From the sequence record PQ511151.1: a DNA stretch of 64,000 nucleotides. One strand, written 5' to 3'. The first letter of the stretch is position 1. Each line of letters begins with the position of its first letter. A model generated the notes under the pieces. The model saw only the letters and a list, made by a program, of their open reading frames with translations, was not told where the DNA came from and did not search any database. Position numbers and translations under genes: made by a program. Origin of the DNA: Escherichia phage NHEP36. This document shows, one piece after another, positions 37,902 through 38,537 of the stretch.

Positions 37902-38537
37902 ATGAAAACTACTCCTATTACTATCGCTATTGACGCAATCATAAAACAAGCTTCTTCTTTGGCCGCTATGGCCAAAGTAATTAGTCAAAACCCTGCTCGT
38001 TATAATGCTATTCTAGAAACTCTTCGACGCCCAGGACTTAGTAATTATGAAAGCCGAGTAATTATTACAGGTGTTGGTAAGAATGCTAATATTGCAACTA
38101 AAGCTTCTGAGACATTTGCTTCACTCGGTATCCCGAGTATGTACTTGAACACTGGGCATTATTCTCACGGTGATGCAGGATTCATTGCGCCTAATGATGT
38201 GTTGATTCATATTAGTCGTTCTGGTAAAACTGAAGAAATGATAGGCGTGGCTAAGCATCTTAAAATGATTCGTCCGAACGTCAAACAAATTCTGTTGCAT
38301 TGTAACCCAGACATTCCACAAGAAAATGAAGCCCTTTTTGATTACTCTTTCTGTACAGGCATCGCAGTAGAGGTTGATGAGAATTCTCTGGCTCCGACTA
38401 TGTCCACTACATTGTTGTTAGCGCTTATCGATACGTTTGCTATCAACCTTTCGTCTGAGCGTGGATTTACCTCTAATGACTTCCTTAAGTTCCACCCTGG
38501 CGGTGCACTAGGTGCCATGTTACGAGGCGAACAATGA
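37902..38537 (+). CDS. SIS-domain sugar phosphate isomerase (arabinose-5-phosphate isomerase KdsD/GutQ-like)
   Basis: GVGKNANIATKASETFASLGIPSMYLNTGHYSHGDAGFI...ISRSGKTEE follows KdsD-type SIS signature. Confidence 0.75.
   Translation: MKTTPITIAIDAIIKQASSLAAMAKVISQNPARYNAILETLRRPGLSNYESRVIITGVGKNANIATKASETFASLGIPSMYLNTGHYSHGDAGFIAPNDVLIHISRSGKTEEMIGVAKHLKMIRPNVKQILLHCNPDIPQENEALFDYSFCTGIAVEVDENSLAPTMSTTLLLALIDTFAINLSSERGFTSNDFLKFHPGGALGAMLRGEQ

Follow-up and report, generated by a model that had tools for sequence, protein, structure and literature searches.

A phage gene beside the DNA polymerase gene very probably encodes a SIS-only arabinose-5-phosphate isomerase supplying DNA arabinosylation

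Why should a T4-like phage keep a gene for a sugar-phosphate isomerase directly behind that for its DNA polymerase? In the 64,000-nucleotide stretch of Escherichia phage NHEP36 analysed here (sequence record PQ511151.1; hereafter the window), the gene for the gp43 polymerase is followed by an open reading frame (ORF) that runs from ATG to TGA and encodes 211 residues, which an initial annotation had read as a phage-encoded, KdsD-like enzyme that diverts ribulose 5-phosphate (Ru5P) into arabinose 5-phosphate (A5P) for an arabinose-based modification of the DNA. We consider it very probable that the ORF encodes a D-arabinose-5-phosphate isomerase made of a SIS domain only, and that this enzyme feeds the phage's arabinosyl-5-hydroxycytosine DNA modification by way of the gene cassette downstream. 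The basis for this in our analysis is homology, catalytic residues, fold, gene linkage and purifying selection, from which we infer that the protein is catalytically active and that its role is to raise the supply of A5P. The finding itself is already known, in that the identical protein, its annotation and a proposal for its pathway are all on record.

The protein is identical at 211 of 211 residues to RB69 gp55 (RB69ORF055c, NP_861745.1), named arabinose 5-phosphate isomerase in RefSeq and described in the record's note as 'similar to ... GutQ'. Between the two phages the isomerase gene differs at 10 nucleotides, 10 of these being synonymous and 0 non-synonymous, and gp43 shows 43 synonymous versus 1 non-synonymous codon differences, which together point to purifying selection. 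That the gene is carried by a phage is borne out by its surroundings, since the DNA from 37600 to 40900 matches about 150 RB69-like phage genomes at 98-99% identity and the flanking genes are T4-like, with gp45, gp44, gp62, regA and gp43 lying 5' of the isomerase gene. The source belongs to the RB69-like phages of the T4-like genus Mosigvirus, and is a close relative of RB69 and not RB69 itself. The 903-residue polymerase ORF stops at 37861, so that the gap before the isomerase ATG is exactly the 40 nucleotides first reported. The isomerase gene is presumably co-transcribed with gene 43; a consensus scan found no promoter-like or terminator-like site in the spacer between them, and over 37400-44600 the counts of such sites were not above those in shuffled sequences. 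The window as a whole holds no tRNA genes and no Rfam families. The G+C content of the isomerase gene is 41.4%, against 37.2% for the window and 35-39% for its neighbours, which could reflect either amino-acid composition or a separate origin.

To which branch of the SIS family does the protein belong? Both parts of the SIS signature that had been noted, GVGKNANIATKASETFASLGIPSMYLNTGHYSHGDAG and SRSGKTEE, are present in the protein, and the Pfam scan found one SIS domain (E=1e-10) and no other. Among the NCBIfam models it matches KpsF/GutQ at 2e-32 (TIGR00393), KdsD at 7e-31 and GutQ at 9e-23 (NF008141; NF008581), and so scores above every other SIS subfamily, the next being HexR/RpiR at about 1e-6 and HxlB at 6e-3. 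It also matches PHROG 5670, 'arabinose 5-phosphate isomerase', at 4e-116, and its best sequence matches among solved structures are 3etn (2.6e-25), 5uqi (4e-23) and 2xhz (3.5e-19), with 3fxa fourth at 1.8e-13. Matches of this strength go well past what chance would produce. No Pfam match was found in it to the two C-terminal CBS domains; in alignment it ends about 13 residues past the HPGG motif, some 120 residues fewer than E. coli KdsD. The 120 closest database homologues listed are likewise all SIS-only, mostly of 205-226 residues (range 133-262), and many of these sit on contigs sized like T4-like genomes. With 211 residues, a single SIS domain and verified A5P isomerases as its closest solved relatives, the protein fits the build of the SIS-only A5P isomerases. 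Since SIS domains of the RpiR family are the next-best matches after the isomerases, one might ask whether it is instead a non-catalytic, sugar-phosphate-binding sensor like the SIS domains of the RpiR, MurR and HexR regulators. We regard this as extremely unlikely, because the regulator matches are weaker by more than 20 orders of magnitude, because the Pfam scan found no DNA-binding domain in the protein, and because none of its five catalytic residues changes anywhere in the phage clade.

These residues are K60, H89, E112, E157 and H198. In an alignment of the isomerase with KdsD from the MG1655 genome and the homologues of an Acinetobacter phage and Sphingomonas phage PAU, they fall on E. 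coli KdsD K59, H88, E111, E152 and H193, which reportedly belong to the KdsD active site (Sommaruga 2009; Gourlay 2010). None of the five varies between E. coli KdsD and phage PAU, nor among 25-26 diverse phage homologues with as little as 25% identity. PDB entry 2xhz, the SIS domain of a K59A KdsD ('Probing the active site...'), has Ala at position 59, which fits a study that probed K59; 'catalytic cysteines' are named in a paper on B. pseudomallei KdsD and were not used here. An AlphaFold2 model built on 25 homologues (predicted local distance difference test, pLDDT, 94.0; predicted template-modelling score, pTM, 0.89) gave the same picture at the level of the predicted fold. In a Foldseek search of the PDB its top match was 2xhz (1.4e-13), followed by 3etn (1.8e-13) and 5uqi (7.5e-13; template-modelling (TM) scores 0.81/0.90), with TM scores of 0.75-0.90 over these three; 3fxa stood at 1.5e-11, and RpiR-type regulators, MurQ, GmhA and GlmS all at 3e-8 or worse. 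This ranking agrees with the result of Lee et al. for RB69 gp55. As far as sequence and a predicted model can tell, subfamily, catalytic residues and fold all agree with the KdsD-like assignment.

The pathway into which such an enzyme would fit has been largely set out for related phages. Arabinose was found in the DNA of RB69, and ORF055c was identified there as the KdsD/GutQ-like SIS partner of ORF53_52c (Thomas et al. 2018, PMC6024577). The DNA of RB69 and DLP3 has since been found to contain mono- and poly-arabinosylated 5-hydroxycytosine, with gp48 shown experimentally to make 5-hydroxy-deoxycytidine monophosphate (5-hydroxy-dCMP) using flavin and O2 and gp55 proposed to divert Ru5P to arabinofuranose 5-phosphate (Lee et al. 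2026, PMC13326640). Arabinosylated 5-hydroxycytosine has been observed in virion DNA of RB69, NP, Bas46 and others by liquid chromatography-mass spectrometry and nuclear magnetic resonance. For Mosigvirus NP and Bas46 the corrected structure has been confirmed by other groups; today the base is recognised as arabinosyl-5-hydroxycytosine, not arabinosyl-5-hydroxymethylcytosine. For phage HY126, as far as the summary of He et al. 2026 in PMC13326640 goes, AfhE (a homologue of gp52:53) and AfhF (a homologue of gp51) turn A5P into uridine diphosphate (UDP)-arabinose by way of arabinose 1,5-bisphosphate and arabinose 1-phosphate, the sugar being delivered as UDP-arabinofuranose.

A cluster of this type lies directly downstream of the isomerase gene in the window (Table 1). 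Its kinase/pyrophosphorylase, phosphatase, 5-hydroxy-dCMP synthase and glycosyltransferase, at 38719-43891, are 97.7-99.2% identical to those of RB69, and over the ORFs corresponding to RB69 gp54 through gp45 the identity is 90-100%. Moreover, the isomerase gene adjoins a kinase/pyrophosphorylase homologue in four lineages, namely Mosigvirus, the Acinetobacter Lazarusvirus (isomerase 59% and kinase/pyrophosphorylase 57% identical to those in the window), Sphingomonas phage PAU and a 310-kb metagenomic phage contig, and 57 Acinetobacter phage records contain the isomerase. This conserved linkage bears on whether a genuine A5P isomerase might serve another purpose, that is, to sustain or alter host synthesis of 3-deoxy-D-manno-octulosonic acid (Kdo) and lipopolysaccharide (LPS), or of capsule, during infection. 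Its cellular homologues KdsD, GutQ and KpsF do act in the Kdo and capsule pathways, and in some phages the other cassette genes occur with no isomerase gene among them. Against this purpose stand the pairing with the kinase/pyrophosphorylase in four distant phage lineages, the position within an early block of replication and nucleotide-metabolism genes, in the slot beside the genes for base modification, and the finding of no kdsA, kdsB or kdsC among the cassette ORFs scanned; we therefore hold a role in host Kdo or capsule synthesis to be a very slim prospect. Both the sequence tests and the linkage agree with the diversion of Ru5P to A5P for DNA arabinosylation that the initial annotation had suggested, as already published for RB69 gp55.

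Taken together these data suggest the following route. Ribulose 5-phosphate from the host pentose-phosphate pathway would be interconverted with A5P by the isomerase; the cassette would then phosphorylate A5P at C1, strip the 5-phosphate and couple the product to uridine triphosphate (UTP) to give UDP-arabinofuranose, and two phage glycosyltransferases would place arabinofuranose onto 5-hydroxycytosine in the phage DNA, the 5-hydroxycytosine having been produced at the dCMP level by the thymidylate-synthase homologue of the same cassette. The demand for sugar along this route can be estimated. At the 37.2% G+C of the window a 167.6-kb genome would hold about 62,000 cytosines, and if each of these carries 1-2 arabinoses and the burst is taken as 100-300, an infected cell would need about 0.6-3.7 x 10^7 arabinose units within one latent period. 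An E. coli cell carries roughly 10^6 LPS molecules, each with two Kdo or more, so the demand would amount to several-fold the host's normal A5P flux. An isomerase without CBS domains that is expressed together with the replication genes would cover such a demand and might escape host regulation. With arabinosylated cytosine in their DNA these phages withstand restriction enzymes and CRISPR nucleases and become open to attack by type IV systems, and because arabinosylation affects defence in this way, the genes for sugar supply help to set host range and the ease with which phages can be engineered.

Several observations weigh against this reading and have to be set beside it. First, the protein falls below the curated cut-offs of all three family models, with 112.9 versus 203.7 bits for kpsF, 107.7 versus 505 for KdsD and 80.8 versus 481 for GutQ. 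Only about positions 2-153 of 268 or 47-202 of 328 in the profiles are covered, and the shortfall is explained by the missing CBS pair, the full-length models being matched by their SIS half alone. Second, Listeria monocytogenes lmof2365_0531 (3fxa), which is SIS-only and alike in fold and size, is reportedly a glucose-6-phosphate isomerase without A5P activity (Cech et al. 2014), which means that homology alone leaves the substrate unfixed. Third, in the literature searched, which did not take in He et al. 2026 and Mahler et al. 2025, we found no assay, complementation or knockout of the phage isomerase, and a phage transposon-mutagenesis preprint holds no essentiality data for the modification genes of Bas46 or LC53. 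Fourth, the clusters of Klebsiella phage Kpn BM7 (Marfavirus; 3327..8991) and Proteus phage PM2 (Bragavirus; 3188..10119) contain no isomerase gene and keep the kinase/pyrophosphorylase, phosphatase, U32 protein, thymidylate-synthase homologue, transferase and nucleotide kinase, which argues that the isomerase is accessory and not obligatory.

With regard to the second point, the protein might be a sugar-phosphate isomerase with another substrate, such as a Listeria-like enzyme for glucose 6-phosphate/fructose 6-phosphate, or a phosphoheptose or hexulose isomerase. The SIS fold is common to many isomerases, 3fxa is the fourth-best solved relative of the phage protein, and the SIS domains of eukaryotic GFAT are cross-active with A5P (PMC11301363), so that substrate range within the fold is flexible. 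However, the verified A5P isomerases outscore 3fxa by 6 to 12 orders of magnitude, and in the residue alignment Thr replaces both the catalytic Lys (GCGTSG) and the Asp of the HGD motif (HGTLG) of 3fxa, whereas the phage protein retains K60 and D91 like the verified isomerases, both residues being invariant in the phage clade. There is no match to a GmhA model and only the faint one to HxlB, and GmhA structures are found at about 1e-6 with 16% identity. In addition, the DNA of such phages carries arabinose, and the downstream enzymes of HY126 begin from A5P, at least in the summary given by Lee et al. On this balance we judge another substrate to be very unlikely.

As to the fourth point, the U32 gene is found in 26 Klebsiella and 7 Proteus phage records, and neither Klebsiella nor Proteus is among the ten most frequent organism names for the isomerase matches, the tenth of which has 3 records. 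Either the host KdsD/GutQ suffices in the phages that have no isomerase, or another sugar is used; the kinase/pyrophosphorylases of Kpn BM7 and PM2 are only 42-43% identical to that in the window, and the sugar in these two phages might be a different one. We put forward, tentatively, the possibility that the phage isomerase is a booster of supply free of CBS domains and of regulation, not an obligatory part of the pathway, and that it matters only if the demand for some 10^7 arabinoses exceeds what the host enzyme can deliver or if the host enzyme is limited by feedback.

Table 1. The candidate isomerase gene, the spacer before it and the genes of the DNA-modification cassette in the window.
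Feature	Coordinates	Strand	Matches and proposed role
Spacer between gp43 stop and isomerase start	37862..37901	+	40 nt, TATAATGTCATGGACGGTAAACTAATTAAATGAGAGAAAT; purine-rich GAGAGA directly 5' of ATG; sequence read directly
Candidate SIS-only A5P isomerase (= RB69 gp55)	37902..38537	+	proposed ribulose 5-phosphate <-> arabinose 5-phosphate
47-residue hydrophobic ORF, MKAITIGLLLLMLVMTIYWSLTAPVMIPTLVIGWIMIGLQAKYECFN	38534..38677	+	PHROG 3610, 6.8e-27, unknown function
561-residue sugar-1-phosphate nucleotidyltransferase (N-terminal) and kinase (C-terminal), RB69 gp52:53/AfhE homologue	38719..40404	+	Pfam NTP_transferase 8.5e-10
HAD-type phosphatase, RB69 gp51/AfhF homologue	40389..40790	+	TIGR01689 2.4e-13; 97.7% identity to gp51
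Peptidase-U32-family protein, RB69 gp50	40832..42007	+	Pfam Peptidase_U32 7.5e-11; weak UbiU match
76-residue ORF, RB69 ORF049c	42004..42231	+	PHROG 8601
Thymidylate-synthase homologue, 5-hydroxy-dCMP synthase, RB69 gp48	42276..42992	+	Pfam Thymidylat_synt 2.4e-15; 99.2% identity
299-residue glycosyltransferase, RB69 gp46:47 (arabinosyltransferase 1)	42992..43891	+	98.3% identity to two RB69 pieces; assignment from PMC13326640
Thymidylate-kinase-like nucleotide kinase, RB69 gp45	43893..44441	+	PHROG 761; 98.9% identity; PMC13326640 Table 1
Second arabinosyltransferase, N-terminal 167 residues, RB69 gp3 homologue	63497..64000	+	166/167 identical to NP_861693.1; cut by the window end

The ATG of the small hydrophobic ORF overlaps the isomerase stop codon (ATGA); the ORF is 100% identical in RB69, where a shorter ORF054c is annotated, it is annotated in phage F2, and it is absent from the Acinetobacter cassette. 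The 561-residue protein has weak Pfam matches to kinase families and is 98.6-98.8% identical to two RB69 pieces, and PMC13326640, in its summary of the HY126 work, gives the role as A5P 1-kinase and UDP-arabinose pyrophosphorylase. Both this ORF and that of the first glycosyltransferase are unbroken in the window and are split in the RB69 record, into gp53/gp52 and gp47/gp46 respectively, which lends independent support to the published view that the splits in RB69 are sequencing errors. For the HAD phosphatase the start used in relatives is an ATG at 40404, which overlaps the upstream stop, and the same summary in PMC13326640 has it convert arabinose 1,5-bisphosphate to arabinose 1-phosphate. 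In RefSeq and PHROG the ORF goes under the name 'phosphoheptose isomerase'; it is without a SIS domain and instead matches a capsule biosynthesis phosphatase model (TIGR01689), and from these matches the label looks like a propagated misannotation. A reading of the SIS protein itself as phosphoheptose isomerase was rejected, there being no NCBIfam GmhA match and a weak fold match, and the RefSeq label of that name belonging to the neighbouring phosphatase ORF. The gene for the second arabinosyltransferase is located apart from the others, after the topoisomerase gene.

The cassette further includes a member of the U32 family, which in RB69 is gp50, only a table entry as 'sugar or heterocycle reductase' and never discussed in Lee et al. 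2026 (PMC13326640). The phage version of the U32 gene was found in 221 phage records, each with no less than 80% identity, and the hosts named in them are Enterobacterales and Shewanella; the ten commonest names do not include Acinetobacter, and the cluster of the Acinetobacter phage Apostate has no U32 gene. The U32 family includes RlhA, TrhP and UbiU/V. According to a 2026 review, RlhA is an Fe-S enzyme that makes 5-hydroxycytidine in 23S rRNA with prephenate as hydroxyl donor, and TrhP is a prephenate-dependent alternative to the O2-dependent TrhO. In Kpn BM7 an 81-residue ORF directly after the U32 gene (locus 6001..7403) is a full-length chorismate mutase type II (CM_2, 3.3e-9), and in PM2 (locus 6013..8510) a chorismate mutase of 128 residues (CM_2, 3.4e-12) lies between the U32 gene and the thymidylate-synthase homologue; chorismate mutase makes prephenate. 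The chemistry of the family combined with the adjacent chorismate mutases suggests that the U32 protein may be an O2-independent, prephenate-dependent cytosine C5 hydroxylase, and it further suggests that the putative hydroxylase would serve phages of facultative anaerobes as a backup for the O2-dependent gp48. The 76-residue ORF after the U32 gene in the window has no Pfam match even at E<=10, and as a candidate chorismate mutase it was rejected because no similarity was found.

How, then, does the locus compare with known systems? In T4 the gene order is 43 - imm.1 - imm - 42 - beta-gt - segA - uvsX, and relative to it the sugar cassette occupies the slot of imm.1/imm, the thymidylate-synthase homologue that of gene 42 (25% identity to gp42) and the arabinosyltransferase that of beta-gt. 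With E. coli KdsD, GutQ and KpsF the phage protein shares the SIS subfamily and the five active-site residues, and KdsD provides its top fold match in 2xhz; however, the cellular enzymes have 321-328 residues and carry a C-terminal pair of CBS domains that is missing from the phage protein. The A5P isomerase c3406 of E. coli CFT073 (5uqi, solved with A5P) and the B. fragilis enzyme (3etn) are likewise SIS-only, without CBS domains and with the same catalytic residues, in chains of 198-220 residues, and so provide a precedent for a CBS-less A5P isomerase. The TM scores of the fold matches to these two are 0.76-0.90. An E. coli delta-kdsD delta-gutQ strain is complemented by the B. fragilis gene, which served as the positive control in that test (PMC11301363). 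Judged by its sequence the phage protein is closer in build to these short SIS-only isomerases than to KdsD itself, although they are only 29-32% identical to it and are cellular enzymes for Kdo or capsule, not for DNA modification. Nearer relatives are gp83 of Acinetobacter phage DLP3, to which Lee et al. 2026 assigned the step from Ru5P to A5P (PMC13326640), and the other Lazarusvirus homologues such as Apostate_076, at 57-59% identity. The order in the Acinetobacter phages is alike, with isomerase, kinase/pyrophosphorylase, phosphatase, thymidylate-synthase homologue and glycosyltransferases; their cassette differs in having no U32 gene and in having extra glycosyltransferases, and the DNA of DLP3 is tri-arabinosylated. 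Closest of all is RB69 gp55 (PHROG 5670), which is the same protein in the same slot after gene 43 and in front of the same cassette, with only synonymous differences between the two genes.

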